A DNA stretch of 64,000 nucleotides from an uncultured Clostridia bacterium. Lineage in GTDB: Bacteria; Bacillota; Clostridia; Christensenellales; CAG-917. The notes under the pieces are model-generated. The model was not told the DNA's origin. It did not search any database and was given only the letters and a program-made list of their open reading frames with translations. The stretch covers positions 4,884-68,883 of the forward strand of contig CANRBM010000002.1 in NCBI GenBank assembly GCA_947628855.1. The letters run 5' to 3'. The translations under genes and the position numbers were made by a program. Of the stretch, positions 34,342 through 63,263 are shown piece by piece (within the stretch, counting starts at the first letter, position 1; each line of letters begins with the position of its first letter).

Positions 34342-34393
34342 ACCGTGTGTCTGACGTAGCTTATAAAATCACGATCAAAAAAGCAAACATCAC

Positions 34394-34435
34394 AAAAAAA
34401 TGTCCGCCCCATTTTTGAAAGGGCGGACGTTTTTA
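34394..34435. terminator. Bidirectional intrinsic terminator shared by lacZ and the TAC operon
   Basis: A7, GTCCGCCC (34402-34409), 11-nt loop, GGGCGGAC (34421-34428), then GTTTTTA. Confidence 0.7.
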
Positions 34436-34448
34436 TAGGTGCATGGAT

Positions 34449-34835: not shown

Positions 34836-34845
34836 AAATTCCTCC

Positions 34846-35403: not shown

Positions 35404-35419
35404 TGTTTTCACCTCTCAA

Positions 35420-35803
35420 TCATTCATATTCCGCTTCATGAAAAGATACCACTATTACCAGTTTATTTTTCAGTTCTTCGCTTGCGACAGTACCCAATTT
35501 GATGTACAGTGTAACTCTCTTTTTCCTGTTTCCGTTTATGGGCAGCAACATCTCATTATGTTTGAATATATGCAATTTATCTATTGCCAAGTTTCCGTAT
35601 GTATAAAAAATTGACTCTTTATAATCTGCGAGCGTGAGTTTGCGAATTATAGACATTTCGTCTTGGTCGGTTATTCTATAATCGCTTAAGAAATTTAGAT
35701 TTTTATTCCTCTCCAGAATTTGTATGCTTGCGCGACCGCTTTTCAAGTTTTCGAGCAGCATTTGGACAGTTTCGCTATCATCGAATTTGTCGGTCACAGT
35801 CAC
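35420..35803 (-). CDS. mqsR: MqsR-like toxin (putative RNase)
   Basis: 127 aa, GTG start 11 nt after AGGAGG. LTLADYKESIFYTY vs E. coli MqsR LSESDFYKSMTTY. VTLYIKLG...KLVIVVSFHEAEYE vs VYLKITVIHDVLIVSFKEK. Confidence 0.65.
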   Translation of the reverse strand: MTVTDKFDDSETVQMLLENLKSGRASIQILERNKNLNFLSDYRITDQDEMSIIRKLTLADYKESIFYTYGNLAIDKLHIFKHNEMLLPINGNRKKRVTLYIKLGTVASEELKNKLVIVVSFHEAEYE

Positions 35804-35829
35804 TTTTCACACATCCTCCTTGTTTATTT

Positions 35830-35858
35830 ATTATATCAATCTGCGGCCGGCCTGTCAA
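35830..35858 (-). promoter_or_regulatory. Consensus sigma-70 promoter of the TAC operon
   Basis: On the minus strand: TTGACA (35858-35853), 17 nt (contains GGCCGGCC), TATAAT (35835-35830). The predicted leader to GTG 35803 is only about 20 nt. Confidence 0.7.
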
Positions 35859-35870
35859 TGATAATTTTGC

Positions 35871-35880
35871 ACCAATTGGT
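35871..35880. promoter_or_regulatory. Candidate MqsA operator palindrome
   Basis: Perfect palindrome ACCAATTGGT, 12 nt upstream of the -35 box. It resembles the E. coli MqsA site ACCT-N-AGGT. Confidence 0.4.
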
Positions 35881-36135
35881 ACATTTTTATACGCGCTTTT
35901 TTATCATAAACTATGCGTTTCGTCAAAAACAAGAAAATATGCAACATTTGGTGTGTAAAAATTTTTTGAGGCACAAAATATTGATTTTTGTGATTAGGAG
36001 CGCCTACAAAATTTTTTTAACAATAAGATACGAAAAAATTTAGACATTTTCGGTTTAAAACATGTAGACGAATGATCAAGTGCAAAAAAATCCGACGGTG
36101 GAAGTTTCTCGTCTTTGACAAAGCGTCCACACACC

Positions 36136-42800: not shown

Positions 42801-45800
42801 GGCAGCAGAGTGGAGCTGACGGCAACCGAGACCGACGGACAAAAGTTCTACGGTTGGGAAATCATCGACAAAGACAACAATTCAACATTCTATGCCTCTA
42901 CAAGCGTGAGCGGATCGGAATACAAGTTGAGCTACACCGTGCTCGACCCCGTGACGGTGGTCGCGTGGTTTGGCAACGGCGAAGCATATGAGGCGCGCGT
43001 TGGCGGGCATTTCTATGCTACATTGGACGAAGCCGTTAAAGCCGCGAAGGAGCTCGGAACAGCGGATATAGTCATCGTAAAGGACAAAATACATCTTGCA
43101 AGCGATTTGGAGATATCGGCGGGCATTTCGCTAATTCTGCCTTTCTCGGACGAAGGATTGTACTTCGGTTCGGCGGCAAGCAACAAATATAAGACGGAAA
43201 ACAGAATAGCTTGGGCGGACGGCGATGAAAACGCCAACAAATATTTGACATTCTTCATCGACAATACCGCCACGCTGACAGTAAAAGGAAACTTCTTTGT
43301 CGGCGGCGTTGTAAATCACGTCGGGCAGGGCTATCAAGGACACACTTCAGGCGCATATGCCGAGGTGATAAACAACGGACATATTGTCATTCAAGATAAG
43401 GGTGTTATGGACGTCTATGGCAGAGTGAGAGGCACGGGCGACATCGATGTGCAATCGGGCGACCTCAAACAACCTTTCCTCATCCTCGATTTCATGGGCG
43501 GCACAGAAACGCTTGGATTGTTCATGGACGGCGTAACTCCGTTCAAACGCTATGCAATGATAAATATCGAGTGCGATTTTACCATCCACTATGGCGCGCG
43601 TCTTGTCGGACATGCAACTCTTTATGCGCTCCAAGAATTTATATCGTTGGATCAAGCGTTCATCGGCATGAGCGACGACTACGGCAGAGATACGATGATA
43701 ATGCTCAAAGATGGCGCATACGTGACCGCCACATATGACCCGAACAAGGTTGTCGGAGGCGCAACTTCAACCAACTGCACCGAAAAGATAGGCGAAACAA
43801 CATTGCATTTCTATGGCGGCGCATGGTTCAGCTATATGCAATTCACGGCAATGGGAATCACAGTCCCCACAAGCGGCGTGTTCTTCTCTATTCCATACAA
43901 CTACAATCTGCAACTTGACGTCAACGGGAAAGAAGAAGGAACTTATGAGACAAAAACCGACTTCATGATCATGCCGGGCGCGGTCGTGCATGTGTGCGAA
44001 AAGGCAAAGCTGATTCTTCATTCCAACGCTTGGATATACGACGGCTTTGAACAAGCCACAGTGGCAAACAAAACCTATCCCACCGCCTCCGATCTCGAAA
44101 ATGGCAATTATTCGAAGAGCGGCAACCTCATTGTTGACGGTACTTTGGAAATTCAAAAGAAATTCGGATTGAACAACTCGACTGCGCTTCCCGATCAAAG
44201 CAATTTGCAACCCGCGATATTCGTCGGACTTGTTCAAACTACGAGCAATACGGGCAAGATTGTCATTGACTCGCAAGCGATATTGACTTTCAGACCTTTT
44301 GACGGCACGGAGGGGCCGAGTGGCGGAAACTATTTCGCCTATAACTCCACCGCGCGTGTTTGGGACGCGGCGCATGGGTGCTTTGCGGACCTCAAAGCGG
44401 GCAAGACATATACTGCTGTTAAAGGCAAAGAGGGCAATGACGTCACTTTCACGCTGGATTCTATCAAGTATACAAATACAAAACAGAGCGAGACGGATGA
44501 GCTGACCCTCACTCTCGATCAAGAAATGCACGGCAGCTGGATGGAAGATCACAAGGGACATCAACTCGATTGGACTCCCACAGCGGAGGAGCTTGGCAGC
44601 CTCACCCGCGCAAACTTCTGTGAGCTCACGCGCAAATGCTCCGTGATGGGCTGCGACCATAGCACAAGCATGTATCTGTTGAAGGACCTCAATGTCTTGA
44701 CCGCGCAGACCTTCAAGGGCGAGGCGTACACCGATGAGCAATTGAAAGAGATCTTCCTCAAGATGATATTCGGCGAGCAAGCCAATACGGCGAAAGGCAA
44801 GATCACGATCGTGATCGGTCAGCACGACGAGCTGAAGAATGTGCCTGTCTCGCCATATCAAATCGAGATCACGCTGACAGGCGCCGGATGGTGGCTTGCG
44901 GGAAGTAGTAAATATGAGTACGCAAGGACCTTCACCTTCAATATTCAAAAGTACGATATATCCGAGAAGACAGGCTTGACCGTCACAGATATCGGCGCGA
45001 AAACGTATACGGGACAGCAGATCACAGTCAGTGACGTGGACATTCAATTCGCAAATCAAAAACTCGCAAAAGGCACGGACTACACGTTGGGCTTTGGCAA
45101 CAACGTCAATGTCAAGGACGGCGGCACGGTCACCGTCACAGGCGCAGGCAACTTCACAGGGTCGTTTGAACTCAAGTTCAAGATCGATCCTGCGGATATC
45201 TCGGGCGGCACATTGACCGTGCAAGACCCCAACTTTGTCTACAACGGGCAGGCGCAGACTCCGACGAGAGACCATTTGATCATACTAAACGTGGCGGGCT
45301 TTGACAATAGCGTCATAACCGTGGATATCCAAGCTACGGACAATACCAATGCGGGTACGGCGCACGTCACCGTCGAGGGCACAGGCAACTTCACGGGCGA
45401 ATTGTCTGAAACTTTCGATATCAAGAAAGCCACGGCTACCGTCACGCTTACTTCGGCGGCAGGCACCTATGGCGACACGCCTGAAAATATCGCATTCGAG
45501 GTCACGGACTACAAAGTCGACGCGGACAAGGCTATCATTGAAGAAGCCGTGCAGATCACGCATACCGCGACAAGCAACAGCGGCGTGGGCAATTACGCCG
45601 TAAATGTCAAGGTGGGCGAGCTGCAAAACTACGAAGTCAACGTGAAGAACGGAAACAGATCGCAGGATGGCTGGACTGTTCAGAAAGTATACACCGTCAA
45701 TGCCAAGAGCATAGATGGCGCGACGGTCTCCATCAAAGAAGGCAAGACCTACACCTACAACGGCCAGGAGATCACGCCCGCTGTAGGAGAGATCGAGGTC

Positions 45801-50199: not shown

Positions 50200-51947
50200 T
50201 GAAGAGATTGGATACCGAGCTTATCGGCGCGTTGCTCAAGAAACAGCGGATAGAGAGCTCGTATAAATATCGTCGCGGAAAATTCGACATAATGGGCTTT
50301 TTGCTCGGGCTTTTGCTTGCGGCGGCGATAATAGCGCTGTTTGTGGTGTTCTTTGGCAAATTCGTAGGAATATACATGCAAGTGAAAGGCGTATTCGGCG
50401 TTGAGGGCGTAGAGGCAAGACCCGCATTCCACTACGATCTGAGGATATACGAACTCATGACGCTCATCTATGCGGTGGTGTTCATCTTTTTGACGATAGG
50501 GGCGATAATGCAGATAAACAGGCAGATATTTGACGCGGACGGAGCAAGGCTTTATGCGGCTATGCCTGTGGATTCAACAAGCCTGTATGTTGCAAAGATG
50601 ATAACGATATATGCGTCCCAGCTTGTCATATCTACGGTCGTAGTGCTGACTGTCAACATCACGGCGGCGATAAACGTAATGAGCAAGGTCGCGCTTGGGT
50701 GGCAATATTGGCTTGTTACGGGCGTGATGTGCTTTTTGCTCCCGTTGTTGACGATAGCAGTTGGGTCTCTGCTCGCGTTGCCCGTCAATGCTGTAAAGCG
50801 GTTTTTGAAGGACAAGTTTTTGTTGAACTTCATATTGGTCACGGCGATAATGGCGGTGGCGTTCTGGCTGTATTCGATAGTGCTGGACGCGGTGAAGCAG
50901 ATGCTGCTCGGAGACGATCTCAAATACTTCTTTGACGAACCCAAGATGACGGTCATCGTAGAGCTTGTGAGCGGGTTATATCCCGTTAAGTGGCTTGTGG
51001 ACCTGATGCTTGCAAAGCTGGATCCGTCCGCATTGCACATTGGACATACGCCGCTCATTGCGGGTGTTGGCATAGCGGGAGTGTTGGCGGCGTGTATCGC
51101 GCTTGCGCTCGTAATGCTGAGGTTCATGTTGCAACGCGCATTGCAATCCCGCAACACGGGCAGCAGCAGTTATTTGAAGAAAGGCGGCAATGTTGAGAGC
51201 GGAAAGTATGGATTTTTCGCTTTGGTGAAGAAGGAATTTTTGCTCATTTTCCGCACTCCGGCGTATATGTTCAGTTATTTGTCCGTAGCGGTAATAATGC
51301 CGCTTATGGTGTATTTTTGCATGGCGGTGGGCGCGTCCATGTTGGAGAGCTTGGTGGGAGTGCAGCTGAATTTGGAGCTTGCGCTCTTCCTCACATTGCT
51401 TTTCGGCGCGCTTACAAACGTATTTTGCGCGACGAACATAAGCCGAGACGGCGAGATGTTCTACTCCGTAAAGGCGTATCCGCTGGGATATAAGTCTGTA
51501 TTTTTCTCCAAAATATTTTTGTGCATGCTTGTTACGACTCTGTCTCAGCTTGCAAACGCGATCGTGCTCATATGCACGTCCAGCGTGAGCTGGTATGGCG
51601 GTTTGTTCGTGTTCATCGTGGGCGCGCTGTTTGGGTTTGTGAACATATGCGTGGCGACGAGATATGATTTCAACCACGCGCACTTCTCGACGGAAGAGGA
51701 CGGCGAGATAAAGGAATCGAGCGGAGTTGTGTCCACGATAATAGTATTCGGCATGGTGACGGCGTTTTTGGTGGGCGGCCTTGAGGTGGTAATGCGCCTT
51801 ATGACGGAGCTTAAAGGGCAAAGTTTGCCGTGGCTCACCTATTTGATAGGCGCGGTCGCTGCGGTGATAGGAGCGGTGCTGGCGTGCCTGTATTTTGTGG
51901 GCAGGTTGGGCAAGAAGTACTATGAGTTTGAAGGAGGGGAGATCTGA
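50199..51947 (+). CDS. 582-aa polytopic ABC-exporter-type permease
   Basis: The ATG overlaps the ATPase stop (TAATG). About 10-12 hydrophobic segments by eye. No recognisable enzymatic motif. Size and topology resemble the Firmicute 'putative ABC exporter' permeases. Confidence 0.7.
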   Translation: MKRLDTELIGALLKKQRIESSYKYRRGKFDIMGFLLGLLLAAAIIALFVVFFGKFVGIYMQVKGVFGVEGVEARPAFHYDLRIYELMTLIYAVVFIFLTIGAIMQINRQIFDADGARLYAAMPVDSTSLYVAKMITIYASQLVISTVVVLTVNITAAINVMSKVALGWQYWLVTGVMCFLLPLLTIAVGSLLALPVNAVKRFLKDKFLLNFILVTAIMAVAFWLYSIVLDAVKQMLLGDDLKYFFDEPKMTVIVELVSGLYPVKWLVDLMLAKLDPSALHIGHTPLIAGVGIAGVLAACIALALVMLRFMLQRALQSRNTGSSSYLKKGGNVESGKYGFFALVKKEFLLIFRTPAYMFSYLSVAVIMPLMVYFCMAVGASMLESLVGVQLNLELALFLTLLFGALTNVFCATNISRDGEMFYSVKAYPLGYKSVFFSKIFLCMLVTTLSQLANAIVLICTSSVSWYGGLFVFIVGALFGFVNICVATRYDFNHAHFSTEEDGEIKESSGVVSTIIVFGMVTAFLVGGLEVVMRLMTELKGQSLPWLTYLIGAVAAVIGAVLACLYFVGRLGKKYYEFEGGEI

Positions 51948-54900
51948 TGAGGAAGTTGGTAATTGCGCTGATAATAGTTTTGCCTATGGTATTTGTGTTG
52001 GTGCTGTTTTCATCCGCCAATCTTGTGAGCATAAGCGTGAAGGTGTCCGTGAACGGCATACAGATATTTGCGGACGGCGATCCACTCCCCGAGGGAGAGG
52101 CGCTATATGTGGATATGGCGGATATGGAGGACCACATGGTGAGGGCGGAGGTCACGCCCGCGAATGCGTTTGAGAAGGGCTTTACGCTTGAGAGCGACAA
52201 TCCCGAGGTGTTGACAATAAATCAAGACGGAGAGATAGGATATATAGAGGCGCTCAGCGAAGGCACGGCAAACGTCACGGCTACAAGCAAAGACAAGGGC
52301 TTTACGGCGAGCGTACCCGTGGTGGTGACGTCCTCTAAGGCATATGGTGTGGATTTTTCGCTTTATGACGGGGATGGAAACGTCGTAAAGATGAATTACA
52401 ACGCCAACAATTCGACATATACCGTTGCGGGCGAAATAGCCGCGGGCACATACACATACAAAGTAGACATAGAGGGAGGAGACTCAAAGGAGTACACGCT
52501 TAAGGCGGAGGACGAGATAAAGGCTATAATAAACGAGGGCGAAGAGAGCATAATGTTTCCTTTCAGCGACGACGCCACGCTAAAGCTCGAAGTGCCGGAC
52601 GCGATCGTAAACGGCATGACGGGGCAGACGATGACGCGCACCATAAAACTTAATGTGGCAAAAGCGCAGTCTGCAAGCGGCATGATCGTGAACGGAGTGG
52701 CGGACGGCAACACGGTGTTGCTTGCCGAGGGCGCGGACAAGGCGACTATGTATGTAGAGTGCGCGGGCGAACCCGAGCTCACGGGCGAGGGCATAGCGAG
52801 CGTGCGCTGTCTTGTGCACGGCACAAGCACACAGCCTCAGGCGATGAGCGCGGACGAAAACACGCGCGCCGCGAGCGGCAATTACCACAAGCTCGAGGTG
52901 ACTTTAAAGGACGGATACAGACAGGGCGAGTTGCATGCCGAGTTGAAAGCGGGAGGCAAGAGCGTGCCTGTAAAACTCAGTTTTGAGAAGTTCGACTTCA
53001 ATCTGCGCGCTCCCATAATGCGCGAGGACGTTGCGGGATTTGGGACGGTAATACTCAAGGACACTGTTACGACGATGTACGCGGTGCCTGCGGTAAGCGT
53101 GCAGGACGTAGAGTATGTGTGGGAAACGGACGCAGCATCGCTTGAGCTCAAGCCCGCACGAAACGGCGCGGAATGCGCTTTTACGGCGAGCGTAGACGGA
53201 GAATACGGCGTGAGCGTGCAAGCAAAGCGAAACGGCGAGAATTTGGGCGCGGCGAAGCAGCTCAACGTGACCGTAACGACAAAAGTGAACAGCGTATGGA
53301 TAAACAATTCGACGGTAGTAGACCTTGCGGAGCGCTATACTGTGGGCGGCAAGAAGTTTGCAGAGAATGGCGAAATTGTGGATAACGACGGTTATGCCAT
53401 AAGGATAATGGTAAGCAAGAAAGGCTCGACCCCGCATCCCAACGACTATGAGGGGATAGAGGTGGTCTCGTCCAATGAAGAAATAGCATCCGTAACAATG
53501 CGGGACGGCATGGCGTGTCTGGATATAAAGGGAGACGGAGCAATTGAGGTCACGGCAAGGTGGAAATACAACGAGGAGTTTGGCGGCAAAGCTACGAGCG
53601 CCATAAAGCTGAATGTAGTGAAGGACGCCGTGGAGGTAAGCAATTATCCCAATCTCCGCACCGCGACGGAAAACGGACATAAGGTTGTGCTCACAAACAA
53701 TATTATGCTGGGTTCGGACAAGAACGGGCAGGAGTTGCCCCTTGAGGAGAGGCAGCAGATCGCCGCAGAGCACAAGTACAATTCCACCTACAACACCGCG
53801 TGGTACAAACAAAAGAACAATTTGGACAAGGCGAAGGTGATGTATGCGCTGGAGTTCAAAGCGGATGTCTACGGCAACGGCAAATATTTGGACGCAGAGT
53901 ATTTCACCAATGCGGTGGATGGGACGGGACGTCCGTTGATATTCACAGGACCATTGTCATTTGTGGGATTCGGCGAAGATCAATATTCCGCGGCGAGAGT
54001 TGCGGCGCAGGACAATTGCGCCTTCCTCATCCGCACGGACGGCGTAAAACTGTATGGAGTCAATTTGCGCGGTTGCAGCGACGACAGCTTGTATGAAGGC
54101 AACAATTATGAGCTGAACCACCTCAACTATGTCGGGACGACGCTTGAGATCAACGCGGATTGCGACATCATCAATTGCAGACTGCAAAACGGGCGCAACG
54201 TCGTGCGCGCATATGGCGGCAACAGAAATGCAGATCTTGATTCGATGAGCTATTATATCAATTCTGTCCCCAATTTCGACATAGCGGACGCGGACCGTAT
54301 AATCGTCAACATCAAGGGCTGCATCCTTACGCAAAGCAGGGAGTTTATCGTAAAACTCGGTGTAAACAGGGCGATAAAGGGCTCTCGCGCAAACACGGCG
54401 CATCCCGAATTGAGGGATGAAAATAACCGTGCATATAAAGAGACTACAAAGAAGATCTCCGTGCAGGATGACGCGGGCAATGTCCATCCAAAGACAGTTG
54501 GAACAAACCAATACGACATCACAAACGATGAATTTTTCTACAAGCGTTATGTTATGACGGACCTCACGCTTGAGGACAGCGTGCTTGAAACGAGCGGACT
54601 GTTCTGCATAGGAGTAGAGAGCAACTTCGCGGGCGAGGTGCTCACGGATGGTTGTTCGAGCAGTCTTTATGCAGGCAAGTTGAAAACGGAAGGCTGGGCG
54701 AACTCCGGCGGAACATCGTTTGCCTCCATGCTAAGACTTGTGGGCGACGTGCGGATGTACGATTGGAAGGATGTGTCGCAAGTGGACAGCAGCACACTCA
54801 TCGAGTCCGGCAACGGTAGCGGAGATCCATTGGGAGGCATACTCAGCTTCAACATCTCAGCGATGTTGCAGGAAGTGGACGGGCAGGACGAATATGCAAA

Positions 54901-55237
54901 ACTGTTGTACAAGACGGACGACGGCACGACATATGTGCACGGCGGCATAGCTTATTATGGCGGGGGGCGCAACTACTCTTTGATAGACTTGTCCGAATTC
55001 AAATCCGAGCTGAACAATCTGTCTCATATAAACATCAATATAGAGCAATTCTCGACATCAAGCAACCAAACCACGTCCAAGCAGACGCGTCTGTTACCAC
55101 TCGCTTCCGGAACCCACGATTTCAACTTCTGGCTGTATGCCGCCGACAGCGACAACAATTACGCCAAACAGGAAAGCGATATTGCGAACGGCACAAAATA
55201 TACCGGCGTGACCAAAGTTCCTTTATTTTCCGAATGA
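51947..55237 (+). CDS. 1096-aa N-terminally anchored surface protein with Big_2-like and beta-helix-like regions
   Basis: The ATG overlaps the permease stop (TGATG). N-terminal TM MRKLVIALIIVLPMVFVLVLF. Big_2-like TLESDNPEVLTINQDGEIGYIEALSEGTANVTATSKDKGFTASVPVVV. Beta-helix-like NCAFLIRTDGVKLYGVNLRGCSDD...INADCDIINCRLQNGRNVVRAYGG. Confidence 0.8.
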   Translation: MRKLVIALIIVLPMVFVLVLFSSANLVSISVKVSVNGIQIFADGDPLPEGEALYVDMADMEDHMVRAEVTPANAFEKGFTLESDNPEVLTINQDGEIGYIEALSEGTANVTATSKDKGFTASVPVVVTSSKAYGVDFSLYDGDGNVVKMNYNANNSTYTVAGEIAAGTYTYKVDIEGGDSKEYTLKAEDEIKAIINEGEESIMFPFSDDATLKLEVPDAIVNGMTGQTMTRTIKLNVAKAQSASGMIVNGVADGNTVLLAEGADKATMYVECAGEPELTGEGIASVRCLVHGTSTQPQAMSADENTRAASGNYHKLEVTLKDGYRQGELHAELKAGGKSVPVKLSFEKFDFNLRAPIMREDVAGFGTVILKDTVTTMYAVPAVSVQDVEYVWETDAASLELKPARNGAECAFTASVDGEYGVSVQAKRNGENLGAAKQLNVTVTTKVNSVWINNSTVVDLAERYTVGGKKFAENGEIVDNDGYAIRIMVSKKGSTPHPNDYEGIEVVSSNEEIASVTMRDGMACLDIKGDGAIEVTARWKYNEEFGGKATSAIKLNVVKDAVEVSNYPNLRTATENGHKVVLTNNIMLGSDKNGQELPLEERQQIAAEHKYNSTYNTAWYKQKNNLDKAKVMYALEFKADVYGNGKYLDAEYFTNAVDGTGRPLIFTGPLSFVGFGEDQYSAARVAAQDNCAFLIRTDGVKLYGVNLRGCSDDSLYEGNNYELNHLNYVGTTLEINADCDIINCRLQNGRNVVRAYGGNRNADLDSMSYYINSVPNFDIADADRIIVNIKGCILTQSREFIVKLGVNRAIKGSRANTAHPELRDENNRAYKETTKKISVQDDAGNVHPKTVGTNQYDITNDEFFYKRYVMTDLTLEDSVLETSGLFCIGVESNFAGEVLTDGCSSSLYAGKLKTEGWANSGGTSFASMLRLVGDVRMYDWKDVSQVDSSTLIESGNGSGDPLGGILSFNISAMLQEVDGQDEYAKLLYKTDDGTTYVHGGIAYYGGGRNYSLIDLSEFKSELNNLSHININIEQFSTSSNQTTSKQTRLLPLASGTHDFNFWLYAADSDNNYAKQESDIANGTKYTGVTKVPLFSE

Positions 55238-55292: not shown

Positions 55293-55335
55293 CCAAACAT
55301 AAAGCGGAGCGCCTCGCGCTCCGCTTTATGTTTGG
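55293..55335. terminator. Long hairpin terminator between convergent operons
   Basis: CCAAACATAAAGCGGAGCG-CCT-CGCGCTCCGCTTTATGTTTGG (about 19-bp stem). The T-rich tract lies on the minus-strand side, which serves trxB-like/nrdD. Confidence 0.7.
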
Positions 55336-55382: not shown

Positions 55383-55467
55383 CGGGGTCCCCATAAAATT
55401 GTGCAGCGATTTTATGGGGTATTAAATCGGGGCCCTCCGCAAAATTACGCAGTGATTTTATGGGGTA
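55383..55467 (-). repeat. Two tandem IMR module-H hairpins, reverse orientation; the second overlaps the trxB-like 3' end
   Basis: CGGGGTCCCCATAAAATTGTGCAGCGATTTTATGGGGTA (55383-55421) and CGGGGCCCTCCGCAAAATTACGCAGTGATTTTATGGGGTA (55428-55467). Confidence 0.8.
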
Positions 55468-56380
55468 TAGCATCAACGTACGCGCAGGCGGCGTAGGCGG
55501 CGACGGTACCGTCGGAGGCGGCGGTCACAAGCTGGCGTATCTTTTTGGTGCGGCAATCGCCCGCGGCGAATACGCCCTCGCAAGAGGTAGTGCAACTCTC
55601 GTCCGAGATTATATATCCTTTGGCGTCGAGCGCAACGAGGTCTTTGAAAGGCTCGTTTTGAGGGATCTGTCCCACGCAGATGAACGCGCATTTGCAGTCC
55701 ACGGTGTAGGGCGCGCCCGTGAGAGTATTCTCGAATCGGAGAGAGGATAGCTCATCCTCGCCGACAAACTCCTTGAGGGAGATATTGTAGGTGACGTCGA
55801 CATTGGGCTTTGACAGCACGAGGTCGATGAGCGCCTTATCCGCGAAAAGGCGGTCGAAGAGGGCGCAAATGTGCACCTGTCTGCAATATCCCGCAAGCAG
55901 CAGAGCATATTGCAGGGCGGTATTGGCGTCGCCTATGACCGCAACGTCCTCGCCCTTAAAGAATGCGCCGTCGCAAAGCGCACAGTAGCTTACGCCGTTG
56001 CCGACGAGCTCTTCCTCGCGCTCCACTCCTATTTTGCGATGCTTACAGCCCGTTGCGAGAATGACGGAATAACAGTTGTATGTCGCATAATCCGTAGTTA
56101 CAGTGAACGTTTTGTCACCTTTAACTACCGATTTTGCATTTTCAAGTTCTATCTGCGCGCCCCATTGCTCTATCTGCGAGTACAGCTTGTCCATGAGCTC
56201 CGCGCCCGACGCGACGGGGTAGGACGGGAAATTTTCCACGCGCGGCGAGAGGGCTATCTGCCCTCCGAAATTCTCTCCCTCGAGCACGAGTACTGTCTTG
56301 CCCGCGCGGAGGCAGTTGAGCGCCGCAGTCATGCCCGCAGGCCCCGCGCCTATAATGATGATGTCGAAATGCTTTGGCAT
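55445..56380 (-). CDS. Thioredoxin-reductase-like flavoprotein lacking canonical NADPH-binding motifs
   Basis: ORF 55445..56422, start trimmed to ATG 56380 (MPKHFDIIIIGAGPAG). FAD motif GAGPAG and redox CALCDG. By-eye alignment to E. coli TrxB shows GGGNTAVEEA replaced by GDANTALQYA and HRRDGFR replaced by ALFDRLF. Confidence 0.8.
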   Translation of the reverse strand: MPKHFDIIIIGAGPAGMTAALNCLRAGKTVLVLEGENFGGQIALSPRVENFPSYPVASGAELMDKLYSQIEQWGAQIELENAKSVVKGDKTFTVTTDYATYNCYSVILATGCKHRKIGVEREEELVGNGVSYCALCDGAFFKGEDVAVIGDANTALQYALLLAGYCRQVHICALFDRLFADKALIDLVLSKPNVDVTYNISLKEFVGEDELSSLRFENTLTGAPYTVDCKCAFICVGQIPQNEPFKDLVALDAKGYIISDESCTTSCEGVFAAGDCRTKKIRQLVTAASDGTVAAYAACAYVDAIPHKITA

Positions 56381-56437
56381 AATTGTCCTTTTTATGAAAT
56401 GAGCGGGCATTTGCCCGCCCATGCGAATTTGTCTATA

Positions 56438-58876
56438 TTACTTTGCGCTCTCGATGTAGCCCTTGATCTTGCTCGCGTTGTCGTAGGCTGTATATCCGCC
56501 CTTGCCGTCGGGGACGAGCAGGGTGGGAGCCTTCTTGACGCCGTAGGACTTCGTGACGTCCGCGTTGTCCTCCGCGTCGATGACGGTGTAGCCTATGCCC
56601 GCCTTGTCCAGCATGGCCTTTGCCATCTTGCAGTTGGGGCAGGTCTTAGTCGTGAAGATGAGCAACCCGTTGTCGTTCGTGGCGGGAGCGGCGGGAGCTT
56701 GCTTTTCTTCGGCTTTCTTTTCCGCCTCTATTTCGAGGCGCCCCTTGAGCATGGGAGCCTCCTCGCAGCAGACGTGCTCATTAATTGGCTTGCCGTGATA
56801 TTGCGACGTGGCGATGTCGTACACCTTGCGCTCCTTGAACTCGGCGACTTTGCCGTCGTTCCAGTTTTGGACGGGACGATAGTAGCCCGTTATGCGGCTG
56901 TACACTTCCGTCTTTTTGCCGCAGATGGGGCAGGTGTATTGCTCGCCCACGAGATAGCCGTGATCCGCGCAAATGGAGTATGTCGGCGAGAGGGTGTAAT
57001 AGGGCAGTTTGTAGTTTTCGGCGATCTTGCGCACGAGGTTTGCCGCCGCCTGCCAGCTGTCCATTCTCTGTCCGAGGAAGGCGTGGAAAACGGTGCCCGA
57101 CGTGTACAGCGTTTGCAGGTCGTCCTGTATATCCAGCGCCTCGAAGATGTCCGCGGTGTAGCCGACGGGCAGGTGCGAGCTGTTGGTGTAGTAGGGAGTG
57201 TTGTCCGCAGACTTCGCGCAGATGATGTTGGGATATTTCTCGCGGTCATGCTTTGCGAGGCGGTAGGACGTGGATTCCGCGGGCGTAGCCTCGAGGTTGT
57301 ACAGATCGCCGTACTGCTCTTGATAGTCGGAAAGTTTGTTGCGCATGAAGTTGAGGGTCTTCTTTGTAAACTCCTGCGCCTCCTTGTGCGTGAGGTCGCA
57401 GCCTATCCAGCGCGCGTTGAGGCACGCCTCGTTCATGCCGACGAGACCGATCGTCGAGAAGTGGTTCGCGAAAGTGCCGAGATAGCGTTTCGTGTAGGGA
57501 TACAGCCCTTCCTCAAGCAACTTGGTGATGACGTTACGCTTGATCTTGAGGGAGCGCGCCGCTATGTTCATGAGGTGCTCGAGCTCTTTGAAATACTCCT
57601 CTTCCGTCGTCGCGACGTATGCTATGCGCGGCATATTTATTGTGACGACGCCGACGGAGCCCGTAGACTCGCCGCTGCCGAAGAAGCCGCCCGACTTTTT
57701 GCGGAGTTCGCGAAGGTCGAGGCGCAGACGGCAGCACATACTGCGCACGTCGCTCGGCTCCATATCGCTGTTGATGTAGTTGGAGAAGTAGGGAGTGCCG
57801 TATTTTGCGGTCATTGTGAAGAGCAGACGGTTGTTCTCCGTATCCGACCAGTCGAAGTCGCGCGTGATGGAGTAAGTCGGGATGGGATATTGGAAGCCGC
57901 GTCCGTTCGCGTCGCCCTCTATCATTATCTCGATGAACGCCTTGTTTATCATGCGCATCTCGTCCACGCAATCCTTATACTTGAAGTCCATCTCCTTGCC
58001 GCCCACGATAGCGGGGAGTTCGGCGAGGTCGTTTGGCACCACCCAGTCCAGCGTAACGTTTGTGAAAGGCGCTTGCGTGCCCCAGCGCGACGGAGTGTTG
58101 ACGCCGTAGATGAAGGACTGTATGCACTGCTTGACCTCTTTATAGGTGAGGTGATCGACTTTGACGAAGGGAGCGAGATAGGTATCGAAGCTGCTGAAAG
58201 CCTGCGCGCCAGCCCACTCGTTCTGCATGATGCCGAGGAAGTTGACCATCTGGTTGCACAGCGTGGAGAGGTGGCTTGCGGGAGCGGACGTTATCTTGCC
58301 GGGTATGCCGCCGAGGCCCTCTTTTATGAGCTGTTTTAAAGACCAGCCCGCGCAGTAGCCCGTAAGCATGCTCAAATCGTGCAGGTGTATCTTCGCCTCG
58401 CGGTGCGCGTTTGCAATTTCGTCGTCGTAGATCTCGCTCAACCAATAGTTCGCCGTGACGGCGCCGCTGTTGGAGAGGATAAGTCCGCCTACGGAGTAGG
58501 ACACCGTAGAGTTCTCCTTGACGCGCCAGTCGTTGATCTTCAGATAGTTGTCGACGGTGTTCTTGTAGTCGATGAGCGTGGAGTGCACGTCGCGCAACTT
58601 CTGATGTTGTTTTCTATATAGAATATATGCTTTTGCTACTTCTACATAGCTTGACTGGATGAGGACGACTTCCACAGCGTCCTGCACGTCCTCGACCGTG
58701 ACGACGTCGTCAACGATCTTGCTGTTGAAGGTCGCGGTCACTCGAAGCGCCAAAAGATCGAGAATGTCGTCGTTGTAGTTTTTGCCGACGGCGGCAAACG
58801 CCTTCTCGATAGCGACCTTTATTTTGTTGAGGTTGAACGGGACTATGCTCCCGTCTCTTTTTTTGACGTTTAACAT
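56438..58876 (-). CDS. nrdD: Anaerobic (class III) ribonucleoside-triphosphate reductase fused to a C-terminal glutaredoxin/NrdH-like domain
   Basis: 812 aa. N-terminal ATP-cone. Zinc ribbon CADHG...CPICGK. Glycyl-radical motif SRITGYYRPV. Then a Lys/Glu/Ala linker and a thioredoxin-fold domain LLIFTTKTCPNCKMAKAMLDKAGIGYTVIDAEDN. Confidence 0.9.
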   Translation of the reverse strand: MLNVKKRDGSIVPFNLNKIKVAIEKAFAAVGKNYNDDILDLLALRVTATFNSKIVDDVVTVEDVQDAVEVVLIQSSYVEVAKAYILYRKQHQKLRDVHSTLIDYKNTVDNYLKINDWRVKENSTVSYSVGGLILSNSGAVTANYWLSEIYDDEIANAHREAKIHLHDLSMLTGYCAGWSLKQLIKEGLGGIPGKITSAPASHLSTLCNQMVNFLGIMQNEWAGAQAFSSFDTYLAPFVKVDHLTYKEVKQCIQSFIYGVNTPSRWGTQAPFTNVTLDWVVPNDLAELPAIVGGKEMDFKYKDCVDEMRMINKAFIEIMIEGDANGRGFQYPIPTYSITRDFDWSDTENNRLLFTMTAKYGTPYFSNYINSDMEPSDVRSMCCRLRLDLRELRKKSGGFFGSGESTGSVGVVTINMPRIAYVATTEEEYFKELEHLMNIAARSLKIKRNVITKLLEEGLYPYTKRYLGTFANHFSTIGLVGMNEACLNARWIGCDLTHKEAQEFTKKTLNFMRNKLSDYQEQYGDLYNLEATPAESTSYRLAKHDREKYPNIICAKSADNTPYYTNSSHLPVGYTADIFEALDIQDDLQTLYTSGTVFHAFLGQRMDSWQAAANLVRKIAENYKLPYYTLSPTYSICADHGYLVGEQYTCPICGKKTEVYSRITGYYRPVQNWNDGKVAEFKERKVYDIATSQYHGKPINEHVCCEEAPMLKGRLEIEAEKKAEEKQAPAAPATNDNGLLIFTTKTCPNCKMAKAMLDKAGIGYTVIDAEDNADVTKSYGVKKAPTLLVPDGKGGYTAYDNASKIKGYIESAK

Positions 58877-58909: not shown

Positions 58910-58937
58910 ATTGTAACACGCTATCCACAGATGTCAA
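58910..58937 (-). promoter_or_regulatory. nrdD promoter
   Basis: On the minus strand: TTGACA (58937-58932), 16 nt, TACAAT (58915-58910), about 30 nt upstream of ATG 58876. Confidence 0.55.
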
Positions 58938-58944
58938 GGGAAAA

Positions 58945-58992
58945 ACGCAAAATAGTGTGTGAAACATTTTTGCGAAACACAACATATTGTAG
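58945..58992 (-). promoter_or_regulatory. Two candidate NrdR boxes
   Basis: On the minus strand: CTACAATATGTTGTGT (58992-58977) and ACACACTATTTTGCGT (58960-58945). Each matches about 13/16 positions of the NrdR-box consensus acaCwAtATaTwGtgt. Centre-to-centre distance is 32 bp, the usual tandem spacing, and the pair abuts the -35 box. Confidence 0.5.
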
Positions 58993-59270: not shown

Positions 59271-59738
59271 ATGGACAGGATCGCAAGTTTTTCCATCGAC
59301 CATCTCAAGCTCGAGCTCGGGCTATACGTATCGCGCAAGGACAGCAGGGACGGACTGACTGTGACGACCTTCGACCTGCGTATGCGCCGCCCCAACCGCG
59401 AACCCGTCATGGATACCGCCGCTCTGCACACGATAGAGCACCTCGGCGCGACGTATCTGCGCAATTGCCCGCGCAAGGATGAGATAGTCTATTTCGGGCC
59501 CATGGGCTGCCGCACGGGGTGCTATCTTGTGATGTTCGGCGACTTGACGTCGAAGGACGTTTACGACCTGGTGCTTAATATGTGCCGATTTATTATCGCC
59601 TATGAGGGAGATATCCCCGGCGCGAGACCCGCCGAGTGCGGCAACTACCTCGACCAGAATTTGAGCATGGCAAAGTATTATACGAGGTTATACCTTGACG
59701 CTTTAGAGCACTCTCCGCACCTCGAGTACGGCAAATGA
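59271..59738 (+). CDS. luxS: S-ribosylhomocysteine lyase
   Basis: 155 aa. HTIEHLGATY metal site and GPMGCRTGCY catalytic Cys region. Confidence 0.95.
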   Translation: MDRIASFSIDHLKLELGLYVSRKDSRDGLTVTTFDLRMRRPNREPVMDTAALHTIEHLGATYLRNCPRKDEIVYFGPMGCRTGCYLVMFGDLTSKDVYDLVLNMCRFIIAYEGDIPGARPAECGNYLDQNLSMAKYYTRLYLDALEHSPHLEYGK

Positions 59739-59918: not shown

Positions 59919-62900
59919 ATGAAATTCAGAAGAATATTATCCTTTACGTTGTTTATCGTCATGCTGGTTTCATGTATGGCGCTTGTCATATTTCCGCTTT
60001 CGACAGACGTTGCGGAGGCGGCCTCCTCCGCGAAAACGGTCAAGGTCGGCTTTTTTGCGTTTTCGGGATATCACATTATGGATGAGTCCGGAAAGCGCAG
60101 CGGATACGGCTACGAGTTTTTGCAGCTCCTCGCAAGATATCTCGACTGGGAATTTGAGTATGTAGGGTATGAAAAGTCTTATGCGGATAGCGTGCAAGAC
60201 CTTAAAGACGGCAAAATCGACATTCTCACTTCCGTATCCTGGAATGAGGAGCGTGGCGACGTTTTCCTGTTCTCAGAAAAGGATATAGGCACCAACTCCA
60301 CCATCTTCACCGTAAAAGCGGGCAATACGAATGTCATCAAGGACGATTACACCACATATAACGGGTTGAAAATAGGTATGCTCAAAGGCAATTCCAAAAA
60401 CGCGACGTTTAAGGATTTTGCCGAAAAGGAAGGCTTTACATATATTGAGACGTTCTACGAGACCGAATCGGAGCTTTCCGCCGCGCTCGCAAGCGGAGAG
60501 GTGGACGGCATAGTTTCGGGCAGTCTCAGGGCGATGGGCGACGAATGGTTGATCGAATCCCTTGACCCGCAATCTTTCTATATTTGCACGTCAAAAAAGA
60601 GAGCAGACGGGCAAGAACTGATGGACGCCATCAACGTCGCTATAGAAGAACTCGATTTGCAGGAGCCCGATTGGCGCAATGTGCTTAAAAACAAATATTA
60701 TTCAACCGCCAAAAACGGCGAGATAATCGTCACAAACGAGGAGCGCTCGTGGATAGAGGAACACAAGGACAGCAAACTTAAAGTGCTGTTCAACCCCGAC
60801 AGAAAGCCCTACTCATACTTTGAAAACGGCGAAGCGAAGGGCATTTTCCCCGCGCTGTTTGTCAAAATGACCGAGAAATTGGGGCTCCAATATGAATACG
60901 TTCAAGCGAAGGATCGCAAAGATTATTATGAGTTGCGCAAATCGCCCGATATCGACATAGTCATAGACTTCACGGACGACATGTTCATTGCCGAGGAAGC
61001 GGGCTACAAGATAACCGATGTGTATTACACGACCACGCACACCATGATAAAGAGGAATGACACAAAGGGCACGCCCACCAAATTCGCCACTGTCACCTAT
61101 GCGGACAACTACTATTCGGGCTATCTTGAACACTACGTCGGCGACGGCACGCAGTACAAAGGCTACAATTCGCTTGAGGAGAGCATCAATGCGGTCAAGA
61201 GAGGCGACTGCGACGCTACGATCGCGCTATCCTACGTCGCAGAGCTGTTTATATGGCAGGACAAAAACAACGAGTTGGCGTCCGAACTTATCGGCGAGGC
61301 GTCCACCAGCTATACCATTGGCGTAAACAACAAGGAGGGAGCGCACATTCTGCTGTCCATCCTCAACAAATGCGTCGCAGGTATGGACAAAGGCACGACT
61401 TCCTCGATAGTCAACGCGGAAGTCACCAAATTCCGTCCCAACGTCTCCGGCGGGCTTATCTATTTTCTCAGAAGAAATCCCGGATATATCGCGGTAATAG
61501 TGGCGGTAGCGTTGATCTTACTGTTTGCGATCGCCATGCTTGCCGTGAGAAGTGTGAACCAGCGCAGACTCAAACAAAAAATTGCCGAAGCCACCTCGCA
61601 ACTCGAAGCGCAGAAGGAGGAATTGGCGCAAGCGTTGCATGCCGCGGACGCCGCAAACCGCTCCAAAACCACCTTCCTCAACAACATGTCCCACGACATT
61701 CGCACTCCTATGAACGCTATAATAGGCTTTACGGCGCTCGCCACAACGCACCTTGACAACAGGGAGCGCGCGCTCGATTATCTTGGCAAAATTTCGCAGG
61801 CGTCAAATCATTTGCTTTCCCTCATAAACGATGTGCTTGACATGAGCAGGATAGAGAGCGGCAAGGTGCACATCGACGAGCGTCCCGAAAACCTTGCGGA
61901 TATTTTGCAAGGCATCAGAAACATCATACAATCCGACATACATTCCAAGCATTTGGAGCTGTTTATCGACATCGTGGACGTCACCAACGAGGAGATCTAT
62001 TGCGACAAACTCAGGCTCAATCAGATATTGCTCAACCTCACCTCAAACGCTATCAAGTTCACCAAGAGCGGCGGCTCCGTGGCAATAAAAGTCACACAAA
62101 AACCTTCCGAAAAAGAGGGCTTTGGCAAGTATGAATTCAGCGTTAAGGATACAGGTATCGGCATGAGCAAAGAATTTGTCTCGACCGTATTCGATCCGTT
62201 TACGCGCGAGAGGAACTCTACCGTCAGCGGCATACAGGGCACAGGTCTCGGCATGGCGATCACAAAGAATATCGTGGACATGATGGGCGGCGAGATCACC
62301 GTGGAAAGCGAGCAGGGCGTAGGCACCGAGTTTTGCGTTAAGCTTGAGTTCAAATTCGCCGACGCCGACGAGGAGCTCATGTCGCTCAACGAGCTGCACG
62401 GGCTGTATTCGCTTGTCGTAGACGATGATCTTGTTTCCTGCCAAAGCGTGTCCAAGATGCTCCGCGACATAGGAATGCACGCCGAATGGACCATGACGGG
62501 CAAGGAAGCCGTCGTCCGCACTGCGGAAGCAATAGAGCTCGGTCACCCCTTCGAGGTGTACATCATCGACTGGGCTATGCCCGATATGGACGGCATTGCC
62601 ACCGTTAAGCAGATACGCGCAATAATCGGCAACGAATCGCCCATCATCCTCATGTCCGCCTACGATTGGGCGGACATCGAGAAGGAAGCTCGCGAAGCGG
62701 GCGTAACGGGATTTGTCAGCAAACCGCTGTTTGCGTCCGACCTGCACCGTGCGCTTGAAAGGAGCTTGGGCAAAGCTCCCGCGCCCGTCGAACCCGAAGT
62801 CGTAAACCGCTCATTCAAAGGGAAGAGGATACTCCTCGCAGAGGACAATGAGCTCAACAGAGAGATCGCCGAGGAAATATTGACCGAGGCGGGATTCGAG

Positions 62901-63263
62901 GTCGAAAGCGCCGAGAACGGCAAGATCGCTTGCGAGATGATGGAAAAGTCGGACGGCAAGTACGACCTCGTGCTTATGGACGTCCAGATGCCCATCATGA
63001 ACGGTTACGAGGCGTCCAAATATATACGCACTCTCCCCGACAAGAGGTTATCCGAAGTGCCGATCATTGCCATGACCGCAAACGCATTTGAAGAAGACAA
63101 AGCCAATGCGTTCGCCGCGGGTATGAACGGTCACCTTGCAAAGCCCATAGATATAGAAAAAATGCTCGCTTTGCTTGATTCCATCCTCAATGGCGAAAGC
63201 GTAGATCCTGCGACAGAAAATAAACCGCCCGGACAAAACGCAAAGGGCAACAAACAAAAATGA
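59919..63263 (+). CDS. Hybrid sensor histidine kinase with two extracytoplasmic solute-binding domains and two receiver domains
   Basis: 1114 aa. Signal/TM, two SBP_bac_3-like domains, TM (GYIAVIVAVALILLFAIAMLAV), H-box NMSHDIRTPMNAIIGF, G2 box GTGLGMAITK, REC1 IIDWAMPDMDGI, REC2 VLMDVQMPIMNGYE. Confidence 0.9.
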   Translation: MKFRRILSFTLFIVMLVSCMALVIFPLSTDVAEAASSAKTVKVGFFAFSGYHIMDESGKRSGYGYEFLQLLARYLDWEFEYVGYEKSYADSVQDLKDGKIDILTSVSWNEERGDVFLFSEKDIGTNSTIFTVKAGNTNVIKDDYTTYNGLKIGMLKGNSKNATFKDFAEKEGFTYIETFYETESELSAALASGEVDGIVSGSLRAMGDEWLIESLDPQSFYICTSKKRADGQELMDAINVAIEELDLQEPDWRNVLKNKYYSTAKNGEIIVTNEERSWIEEHKDSKLKVLFNPDRKPYSYFENGEAKGIFPALFVKMTEKLGLQYEYVQAKDRKDYYELRKSPDIDIVIDFTDDMFIAEEAGYKITDVYYTTTHTMIKRNDTKGTPTKFATVTYADNYYSGYLEHYVGDGTQYKGYNSLEESINAVKRGDCDATIALSYVAELFIWQDKNNELASELIGEASTSYTIGVNNKEGAHILLSILNKCVAGMDKGTTSSIVNAEVTKFRPNVSGGLIYFLRRNPGYIAVIVAVALILLFAIAMLAVRSVNQRRLKQKIAEATSQLEAQKEELAQALHAADAANRSKTTFLNNMSHDIRTPMNAIIGFTALATTHLDNRERALDYLGKISQASNHLLSLINDVLDMSRIESGKVHIDERPENLADILQGIRNIIQSDIHSKHLELFIDIVDVTNEEIYCDKLRLNQILLNLTSNAIKFTKSGGSVAIKVTQKPSEKEGFGKYEFSVKDTGIGMSKEFVSTVFDPFTRERNSTVSGIQGTGLGMAITKNIVDMMGGEITVESEQGVGTEFCVKLEFKFADADEELMSLNELHGLYSLVVDDDLVSCQSVSKMLRDIGMHAEWTMTGKEAVVRTAEAIELGHPFEVYIIDWAMPDMDGIATVKQIRAIIGNESPIILMSAYDWADIEKEAREAGVTGFVSKPLFASDLHRALERSLGKAPAPVEPEVVNRSFKGKRILLAEDNELNREIAEEILTEAGFEVESAENGKIACEMMEKSDGKYDLVLMDVQMPIMNGYEASKYIRTLPDKRLSEVPIIAMTANAFEEDKANAFAAGMNGHLAKPIDIEKMLALLDSILNGESVDPATENKPPGQNAKGNKQK

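Follow-up and report, generated by a model that had tools for sequence, protein, structure and literature searches.

What reduces a class III ribonucleotide reductase (RNR) whose catalytic protein, NrdD, ends in a glutaredoxin (Grx)-like domain, and whose gene is followed by one for a homologue of thioredoxin reductase (TrxR, TrxB) in which the motifs that bind NADPH have been replaced? The question is raised by a locus in a stretch of 64,000 nucleotides from an uncultured Clostridia bacterium (contig CANRBM010000002.1, positions 4,884 to 68,883 of the forward strand; hereafter the window). To our knowledge, the reducing supply of class III RNRs outside formate has been tested in two systems only, those of N. 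bacilliformis and M. barkeri. Judging from the sequences analysed here, we think it on balance probable that the locus is a two-gene operon, probably regulated by NrdR, which would give an NrdD2-like class III RNR its own reducing system by means of a relay that runs from the flavoprotein to the fused Grx-like domain and on to the active-site cysteines of NrdD.

In the list of open reading frames (ORFs), the locus (55445-58876, minus strand) comprises two co-oriented genes:

56438-58876, minus strand: nrdD-grx fusion gene, 812 amino acids (aa) plus stop codon (ORF translation, Pfam, NCBIfam, structure-sequence alignment)
55445-56380, minus strand: trxB-like flavoprotein gene, 311 aa plus stop codon (Pfam, NCBIfam, alignment, homologue lengths)

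Although the longest ORF of the second gene spans 55445-56422, its start was placed at the ATG at 56380 (MPKHFD...) because of the lengths of its homologues, which are 304-311 aa, and the AAGGA Shine-Dalgarno sequence. This puts the start codon exactly 57 nt past the nrdD stop codon, the spacing read in the initial annotation of this DNA. Family-specific peptide patterns, run against a single genome for each GTDB species, returned at least 489 confirmed stretches; counts of related loci given below refer to the best 80 of these at least 489 stretches, and residue and linker counts to 63 full-length fused homologues.

The nrdD-grx and trxB-like genes form a conserved pair

Metagenome-assembled genomes of the gut and rumen are the source of the best 80 loci, which include members of Christensenella-like and other Clostridia, Acutalibacteraceae, Pumilibacteraceae, Erysipelotrichaceae and other Bacilli. 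The closest among the matches listed (L001), from a rabbit-gut 'uncultured Clostridia bacterium', shows 96% identity. NrdD with a C-terminal Grx domain is encoded directly upstream of the flavoprotein, on the same strand, in 78/80 loci and, as the remaining two end at a contig edge, in 78/78 of those that are complete. The gap between the two genes mostly lies between -14 and +108 nt, while identity across the loci ranges from 72 to 100% for the NrdD core and from 52 to 96% for the flavoprotein; two more divergent members of the flavoprotein family (49% and 44% identity) have the same NrdD-Grx upstream. The features described below are not due to chance, as every related locus examined repeats both the motifs and the gene order.

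NrdD-Grx carries a redoxin-type active site

The 812-aa protein is a class III ribonucleotide reductase. It scores above the trusted cutoffs of curated NrdD models, namely Pfam PF13597 (NRDD; E 3.8e-188, 627 bits against a cutoff of 26.2), the NCBIfam NrdD equivalog NF006126 (1125 bits against 548) and TIGR02487 (516 bits against 326), and its NrdD region can be aligned to the NrdD structures of T. maritima (4COI) and P. copri (8P23). The elements of this region are as follows:

58601-58870, minus strand: ATP-cone, aa 3-92 (Pfam PF03477, E 2.9e-23)
56819-58516, minus strand: NrdD catalytic barrel and glycyl-radical domain, aa 121-686 (Pfam PF13597, 627 bits)
58352-58354, minus strand: C175, β-A active-site cysteine (Y174-C175), aligned with T. 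maritima Y124-C125 (HMMER)
57728-57739, minus strand: finger loop M380-C381-C382-R383, of the double-cysteine type, aligned with T. maritima SCCR
57290-57292, minus strand: E529, putative proton-donor glutamate (NLEATPAES), aligned with T. maritima E495
56879-56899, minus strand: glycyl-radical motif S660-R-I-T-G664-Y-Y, with radical glycine G664 (sequence read)

The ATP-cone and the glycyl-radical motif SRITGYY are therefore present as first annotated. The zinc ribbon that had been named alongside them stands as a metal site, C636-x2-H639 ... C649-x2-C652, just upstream of the radical motif, but with a Cys3His ligand set rather than four Cys. Both the radical motif and the Cys3His site are conserved among the fused homologues.

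C175, the MCCR finger loop and E529 are invariant across the 63 fused homologues. The finger-loop motif classes are set out in PMC9669993. Class III RNRs of the formate type have an MGCR finger loop and lack an active-site Glu; the redoxin type termed NrdD2 has a third Cys, in the finger loop, together with a Glu at T. maritima position 495, and in some cases keeps the Met; NrdD3 has a QCCR/A finger loop and lacks the Glu (PMC9669993, PMC4493059, PMC9176816). Thioredoxin is the reductant for NrdD2, and an NrdH-like redoxin for NrdD3 (PMC9176816, PMC9669993). Both hallmarks of NrdD2, the third active-site Cys and the Glu at the E495 position, are present in NrdD-Grx, so that its predicted active site is the redoxin-type (NrdD2) residue set with the Met retained. 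The initial annotation had proposed comparing NrdD with the formate-type and thioredoxin-type subfamilies, on the understanding that a formate-dependent active site would speak against a redoxin relay; because of the third cysteine, in the finger loop, and E529, the formate-only type is not matched.

A glutaredoxin-like domain is tethered to the glycyl-radical domain

Beyond the glycyl-radical domain, the protein continues into a linker and a small redoxin, both of which lie where the first reading of the sequence had placed a Lys/Glu/Ala-rich linker and a thioredoxin-fold domain with a CPNC site:

56669-56818, minus strand: variable Lys/Glu/Ala-rich linker, aa 687-736 (50 aa), with C702-C703 (homologue comparison)
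56441-56668, minus strand: Grx/NrdH-like domain of thioredoxin fold, aa 737-812, redoxin site C746-P-N-C749, cis-Pro within K-A-P-T (Pfam PF00462)

The redoxin matches Pfam Glutaredoxin (PF00462) over aa 739-787 with 34.6 bits (cutoff 22.9), and its AlphaFold2 model (predicted local distance difference test, pLDDT, 96.6) has the element order β-α-β-α-β-β-α of a minimal thioredoxin fold. C746-PNC749 and K-A-P-T are conserved among homologues. The domain falls within no curated subfamily: its best NCBIfam matches, to the YruB, mycoredoxin and NrdH families, all stay under the cutoffs, and the models for NrdH (TIGR02194), YruB (TIGR02196), Grx3 (TIGR02181) and mycoredoxin give 22-28 bits against cutoffs of 86-90. 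A fold search likewise retrieved generic thioredoxin folds, with NrdH 4FIW at rank 34. The combination of T-x3-C-x2-C, a cis-Pro (K-A-P-T) and G-[YF] (G-Y in the window protein) is common to the NrdH, Cp9/YruB and BC3987 redoxins (PMC3720550). Because of these shared features, and because NrdH-redoxins are reduced by thioredoxin reductase (PMC6187632) and the cp9 gene adjoins the TrxR-like gene cp34 (PMC3720550), we infer that electrons pass from the flavoprotein to the Grx domain.

The linker measures 26-54 aa in the homologues and has no set sequence, as expected of a tether. At least one linker cysteine is found in 57/63 homologues and at least two in 31/63, frequently in the form of CC or CxC with acidic residues around them. 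Speculatively, these cysteines may act as shuttle thiols, in the manner of the C-terminal cysteines found in enzymes of classes I and II; alternatively, they could form a metal site.

Candidate free-standing versions of the Grx domain (P0278, P0294) were rejected, these short entries being pieces of split nrdD gene calls. In one locus (L087, 2836-5231), translation shows that an assembly frameshift breaks the fused nrdD-grx gene, giving rise to a false 'stand-alone glutaredoxin' database entry, and a second (L088, 2847-5234) has the same kind of split call; the public calls for these two loci are in two or three pieces.

The flavoprotein is a thioredoxin reductase homologue with a remodelled NADPH site

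The flavoprotein retains the motifs for flavin adenine dinucleotide (FAD), GAGPAG and GVFAAGD, and a redox-active cysteine pair, so that both the FAD motif and the CALC pair of the initial annotation are confirmed; it is in the NADPH domain that it departs from its relatives:

55973-55984, minus strand: redox-active pair C133-A-L-C136, both Cys invariant in 192 family sequences
55907-55933, minus strand: G150-D-A-N-T-A-L-Q-Y158 in place of the pyrophosphate-binding GGGxxAxE (alignment)
55844-55864, minus strand: A173-L-F-D-R-L-F179 in place of the 2'-phosphate-binding HRRxxxR (alignment)

Alignment to the TrxRs of B. cereus and S. aureus, whose structures are solved, shows GDANTALQY where these have GGGDSAVEE and ALFDRLFA where they have HRRDxLRA, and neither of the NADPH-TrxR motifs GGGxxAxE and HRRxxxR is found in the flavoprotein. 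These replacements, first noticed by eye against the E. coli enzyme, are thus seen again against solved structures and are conserved in homologues. On the thioredoxin-disulfide reductase model TIGR01292 the protein scores 308 bits, below the trusted cutoff of 343.45.

The replacement motifs are themselves under constraint. In the 120 nearest protein clusters (59-96% identity) the loop reads GDA-[NT]-[TAS]-A-[LIM]-Q, in nearly all cases as [IV]GDANTA[LI]Q and with three single-residue variants, and 120/120 clusters have [CAV][ATM][LM]F[DGN][KR][LFW]F[AG]D as the second replacement motif and retain the CxxC pair. Across 192 non-redundant family sequences, D151, A152, N153, Q157, Y158, F175 and F179 are conserved at 95% or more, and D176 and D181 at 80% or more. 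Since the replacement motifs are conserved while the FAD and CxxC motifs are kept, the pattern is one of selection, not decay. An iron-sulfur cluster in the flavoprotein was considered and rejected, because the 192 sequences hold no conserved four-Cys set: besides the CxxC pair, C166 is present in 99%, C276 in 91%, C172 in 85% and all others in at most 79%.

The AlphaFold2 model (pLDDT 89.8) has a TrxR fold, and its best structural matches are the low-Mr TrxRs of B. cereus, T. africanus and S. aureus. Fold searches with the flavoprotein and with the redoxin domain returned generic TrxR and thioredoxin folds, with no pointer to the donor. By sequence score, the best matches among Protein Data Bank (PDB) entries are the Firmicute NADPH-TrxRs 7AAW (216 bits) and 4GCM (211 bits); Firmicute and archaeal NADPH-TrxRs score 198-216 bits and the T. 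acidophilum TrxR 166 bits, compared with 106-120 bits for the clostridial FFTRs (6GNA-D), 113 for the Gloeobacter FFTR/DTR (5J60) and 104 for DvTRi (5NII). On these scores alone (106-120 bits against 216 for NADPH-TrxRs), membership in the FFTR family was rejected, and so was membership in the DvTRi type, on account of LFD[KR] instead of TQ/NGK as well as the 104 bits to 5NII. Of the analogy to the ferredoxin-dependent enzymes of clostridia drawn in the initial annotation, the mechanism therefore holds as a parallel, whereas close kinship does not.

Because the flavoprotein scores nearest to Firmicute NADPH-TrxRs and not to clostridial FFTRs, the change in the NADPH site looks to have arisen independently of FFTR, within the radiation of NADPH-dependent thioredoxin reductases, which is the most economical reading. 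Among 1.84 billion representatives, the nearest neighbours of the family are otherwise canonical GGGxxA/HRRxxxR TrxRs or other variants, and GD[AG]NxAxQY is carried by a limited set. In a crude neighbour-joining tree built without FFTR sequences and bootstrapped with 60 replicates, all motif-bearing sequences group into a single clade that also takes in one or two interlopers. No non-family taxon lies within the most recent common ancestor of the NrdD-linked members in 43/60 replicates, or in 33/60 once the motif columns are removed, which is moderate support. Monophyly of every GD[AG]N..QY protein was rejected, since the widest set, which includes phage-like sequences, has no robust bootstrap support.

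A proposed relay, its electron donor and its rivals

In the relay that we propose, turnover would oxidise the active-site Cys (C175 with C381 or C382) to a disulfide. The Grx/NrdH-like domain (C746/C749), joined by its flexible linker to where the glycyl-radical domain ends, would re-reduce it, either directly or via the cysteines present in most linkers. The flavoprotein encoded downstream would in turn re-reduce the tethered domain through FAD and C133/C136, as TrxR does NrdH. The glycyl radical itself would be installed by an NrdG encoded outside the window. The former NADPH pocket of the flavoprotein would have become a rebuilt, conserved and largely hydrophobic surface, and electrons would most likely be delivered to the flavin by a protein donor, for example reduced ferredoxin or flavodoxin. 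A dedicated disulfide relay of this kind, fed by a low-potential donor, had been proposed in the initial annotation; its architecture is strongly supported by the gene linkage, the operon signals, the active site and the conserved motifs, while the low-potential donor at its head is something that we still infer.

Judged by its motifs, the flavoprotein is likely to be independent of NAD(P)H. A protein donor is more plausible than a pyridine nucleotide because the pocket has neither the Arg cluster that binds the 2'-phosphate nor the acidic residue of NADH-specific relatives. If the enzyme is indeed NAD(P)H-independent, ferredoxin or flavodoxin would be the default donor by analogy with the FFTR-type enzymes, which draw electrons from ferredoxin (PMC8154056).

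Several observations weigh against the relay or against its proposed donor. There is no consistently linked ferredoxin or flavodoxin gene in the 80 loci and no ferredoxin gene in the window, and a ferredoxin gene lies directly downstream in one locus alone (L004; 1/80). The flavoprotein is not close to the proven ferredoxin-dependent FFTRs (106-120 against 216 bits). The Rossmann fold of its former NADPH domain is intact in the model and some more distant family members keep GDG instead of GDA, which makes a remodelled NADH site possible. On the side of NrdD, the Met needed for formate chemistry is retained in the finger loop, and the active site, which the tethered domain would have to reach, is buried.

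The intact fold and the GDG variants bear on a first alternative, in which the relay keeps the path proposed above while a pyridine nucleotide, with NADH the likeliest, still feeds the flavoprotein from a remodelled site; the system would then be a dedicated NADH-TrxR and redoxin comparable to Cp34/Cp9 of C. pasteurianum or to the NADH-preferring TrxR of T. maritima. This alternative, which we regard as unlikely, can draw on the confident modelling of the second Rossmann domain, on the G-D-G of the more distant members, and on the fact that, in sequence as in fold, NAD(P)H-dependent TrxRs come closest to the flavoprotein. In the core family, however, Ala takes the place of the central Gly of GxGxxA and follows an invariant Asp; Leu, Phe and Phe stand for the three 2'-phosphate-binding Arg; and an Ala or Thr occupies the position at which NADH-specific AhpF carries Glu (LLEF). 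While NADH-preferring TrxR-like enzymes that work with Grx-like redoxins are known from anaerobes (PMC5627308, PMC3720550), NAD(P)H does not reduce DvTRi, a TrxR homologue with a comparable GEG change, in which GEGxxAxN and TQGK stand where the NADPH motifs would be (PMC5627308).

A second alternative, which we hold to be improbable, leaves turnover to formate, acting via Met380/Cys175, and assigns the redoxin and its reductase to activation or maintenance, so that the metal-site or active-site Cys are kept reduced for radical installation by NrdG, for instance after oxygen exposure. The Met of MCCR is conserved in 63/63 fused homologues, and since it is retained the enzyme might indeed use formate; yet the β-A Cys, the second finger-loop Cys and Glu529 are just as strictly conserved, and the formate-type P. 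copri NrdD has Leu at the position matching E529 in the same alignment search. MCCR enzymes hold, in principle, the components for either reductant (PMC9669993), and an activating role of thioredoxin for E. coli NrdD is cited in PMC4390871, but a fused redoxin with a dedicated, co-regulated reductase would be a heavy cost for occasional repair. That the trxB-like gene is instead a functionless, decaying trxB duplicate and an accidental neighbour of nrdD, as its score below the TIGR01292 trusted cutoff and the loss of the canonical NADPH motifs might suggest, is scarcely credible and effectively refuted by the conservation data, given replacement motifs that are essentially invariant at 52-96% overall identity, invariant FAD motifs and CxxC pair, and a gene order kept in 78/78 loci across Clostridia and Bacilli.

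The dedicated relay from flavoprotein to fused Grx domain to NrdD is thus the reading we prefer. We would put forward a broader version of it more tentatively, with the odds leaning somewhat against it: that the TrxB-like proteins are a hitherto unrecognised, pyridine-nucleotide-independent lineage which arose from Firmicute NADPH-TrxRs separately from FFTR and DvTRi and became tied to class III RNR by way of the fused redoxin, that electrons for deoxynucleoside triphosphate (dNTP) synthesis come from ferredoxin or flavodoxin, and that linker Cys serve as a shuttle.

Operon signals, the activase and neighbouring genes

The two genes are accompanied by the following signals:

58945-58992, minus strand: two NrdR-box-like 16-bp palindromes, 32 bp apart, CTACAATATGTTGTGT at 58992-58977 and ACACACTATTTTGCGT at 58960-58945
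58910-58937, minus strand: sigma-70-type promoter-like site, TTGACA, 16 nt, TG, TACAAT (consensus match)
56381-56437, minus strand: 57-nt intergenic spacer with a GC hairpin (56401-56420) and the AAGGA Shine-Dalgarno sequence (56386-56390) (sequence read)
55293-55335, minus strand: intrinsic-terminator-like hairpin, 20-bp stem and T-rich tail, which closes the two-gene operon

Each NrdR-like box matches the NrdR consensus acaCwAtATaTwGtgt at 13/16 positions. The boxes lie at -116 and -84 from the start codon and occur at the same positions in L001-L021 and in several further loci of the Clostridia type; given these conserved NrdR-like boxes upstream of the operon, the trxB-like gene would join the NrdR regulon. 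The promoter-like site, identified by consensus match alone, agrees at 11/12 hexamer positions and has an extended -10 TG. One promoter-like site and one terminator-like hairpin thereby bracket exactly the nrdD-grx and trxB-like genes. The spacer hairpin (56401-56420, minus strand) has an 8-bp GC-rich stem, GGGCGGGC-AAAT-GCCCGCTC, with no T-run after it, and might modulate the relative expression of the two genes.

No nrdG gene is present in the 64-kb window, where the CX3CX2C radical-SAM motif occurs only in one spurious antisense frame; the remark that no activase lies nearby thus extends to the window as a whole. A 230-aa NrdG-type activase (CNFRCPFCHN) is encoded next to the pair in 40/80 loci, mostly convergently and just downstream of the flavoprotein gene, whereas in the 22 loci closest to the window the NrdG-type gene is not adjacent. 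The missing nrdG is for this reason best seen as lineage-specific gene order, not as a sign of an activase-free enzyme.

Judged by eye and without a family scan, the genes that recur around the pair resemble those for dCMP deaminase, FolD, HAD hydrolase, U32 peptidase and GtrA-like proteins. The ferredoxin gene of L004 (~9024-9200, plus strand) encodes a 2[4Fe-4S] clostridial-type protein and follows the trxB-like gene, in the same orientation, after ~100 nt. Ferredoxin genes are also found 4.5-7 kb upstream of nrdD in six loci (L007, L008, L013, L015, L016 and L018).

Phage-like relatives and other features of the window

A phage origin of the module was rejected, as there is no close relative in IMG/VR, where the best match is at most 34% identical. 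Distant GD[AG]N..QY relatives (36-38% identity) are encoded on phage-like contigs with no adjacent NrdD (L083, 5001-5969; L086, 5001-5912; L082, 1540-2463). Pfam matches on the L083 contig include a RecD2-like helicase, CLP_protease, PhoH and a dCMP deaminase, and L086 has a T4 RNA-ligase-type domain. TrxR-like proteins match positions 2-322 of the 473 in the profile of PHROG 6397, which is named 'ribonucleotide reductase large subunit'; the window flavoprotein does so with 188 bits. Bacillus phage G gp344 (NC_023719.1, 253675-254556) bears the same PHROG name but is a TrxR homologue at 34% identity, and the name is probably a carried-over annotation error.

Elsewhere in the window, a gene for LuxS (S-ribosylhomocysteine lyase; 59271-59738, plus strand) is divergent from nrdD and is followed by one for a hybrid sensor kinase (59919-63263) with an N-terminal solute-binding domain and two receiver domains. 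Three very large ORFs on the plus strand presumably encode cell-surface proteins: one of 1555 aa (14265-18932) with no Pfam match, one of 2924 aa (39855-48629) with one MBG domain only, and one of 1096 aa (51947-55237) with a Big_2 domain. The G+C content falls to 0.42 at 34001-36000 and at 40001-42000, compared with a background of ~0.52. The first of these stretches contains small ORFs (34449-35412, minus strand) with weak MqsA-antitoxin-like and SecB-like matches, and may be horizontally acquired DNA.

Significance and comparison with known systems

If the proposal holds, the locus represents a third, self-contained arrangement for the reduction of class III RNR, made up of two genes plus NrdG, and the module is common in human, rabbit and ruminant gut microbiota. 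It would constitute a natural experiment on the fate of the TrxR NADPH pocket once NADPH is no longer used. On the broader, more tentative version, ferredoxin or flavodoxin, and not formate or NADPH, would supply dNTP synthesis in gut and rumen Firmicutes that number in the hundreds (Christensenellales-like Clostridia, Oscillospirales, Erysipelotrichales and other Bacilli). In databases the flavoprotein family goes by 'FAD-dependent oxidoreductase', which is uninformative, or 'thioredoxin reductase (NADPH)', which is probably wrong; metabolic models of these organisms that assume formate- or NADPH-linked dNTP synthesis may for this reason be wrong as well.

The pairing of an atypical TrxR with NrdD-Grx appears to be undescribed so far: no description was found in full-text searches of the literature, although a brief earlier mention by Wei et al. 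or Buey et al. is possible. For the Grx-NrdD fusion itself the only mention found is one line of PMC6187632, which names a single genome, Lachnospiraceae bacterium TWA4, and gives neither a partner reductase nor an analysis.

Among class III systems, NrdD-Grx resembles the NrdD2 of N. bacilliformis and T. maritima in its β-A Cys, double-Cys finger loop and Glu, with a redoxin re-reducing the disulfide (Wei et al. 2014, via PMC9669993, PMC4493059 and PMC4390871). The known NrdD2 system relies on a free general thioredoxin and a housekeeping NADPH-TrxR and has an SCCR finger loop. In the present system, by contrast, the redoxin is fused, a dedicated reductase lacks the NADPH motifs, and the finger loop, MCCR, still has its Met.

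The M. barkeri ferredoxin:disulfide reductase described by Wei et al. in 2015 is reportedly an iron-sulfur enzyme of the FTR type and not a flavoprotein. The NrdD3 system to which it belongs (via PMC9176816) has, like the present one, a Grx-like redoxin and a disulfide reductase of its own, with a reductase that works, in the present case probably, without pyridine nucleotides, but it differs in being archaeal, in having a separate redoxin, no Glu and a QCCR/A motif, and in that its reductase is a ferredoxin:disulfide reductase. The Grx::ATP-cone::NrdB protein of Facklamia ignava is a further case of a Grx-fold domain fused to an RNR subunit as its reductant, although it is a class I protein in which the fusion is N-terminal, on the radical subunit, and dependent on glutathione (PMC6187632).

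On the side of the reductase, FFTR/DTR (6GNA-D, 5J60) have the TrxR fold, FAD and CxxC without GxGxxA/HRRxxxR (PMC8154056, PMC10880999), as does the flavoprotein described here, but the clostridial FFTRs are ~20 residues shorter, have free thioredoxins as partners and show no linkage to nrdD. DvTRi (PDB 5NII) is similarly derived from an NADPH-TrxR, with an acidic residue in the Gly-rich loop (GEG), loss of HRRD and no reduction by NAD(P)H; it has TQ/NGK where LFD[KR][FL]F is found here, acts on the general Trx1 and plays a part in oxidative stress (PMC5627308). The NrdH/TrxR pair of class Ib RNR and Cp34/Cp9 are reminiscent of the present arrangement in that a small Grx-like redoxin is reduced by a TrxR-type flavoprotein whose gene lies beside that of the client, but there the redoxins are separate proteins, the reductases run on NAD(P)H, and the clients are NrdE or a peroxiredoxin (PMC3720550).

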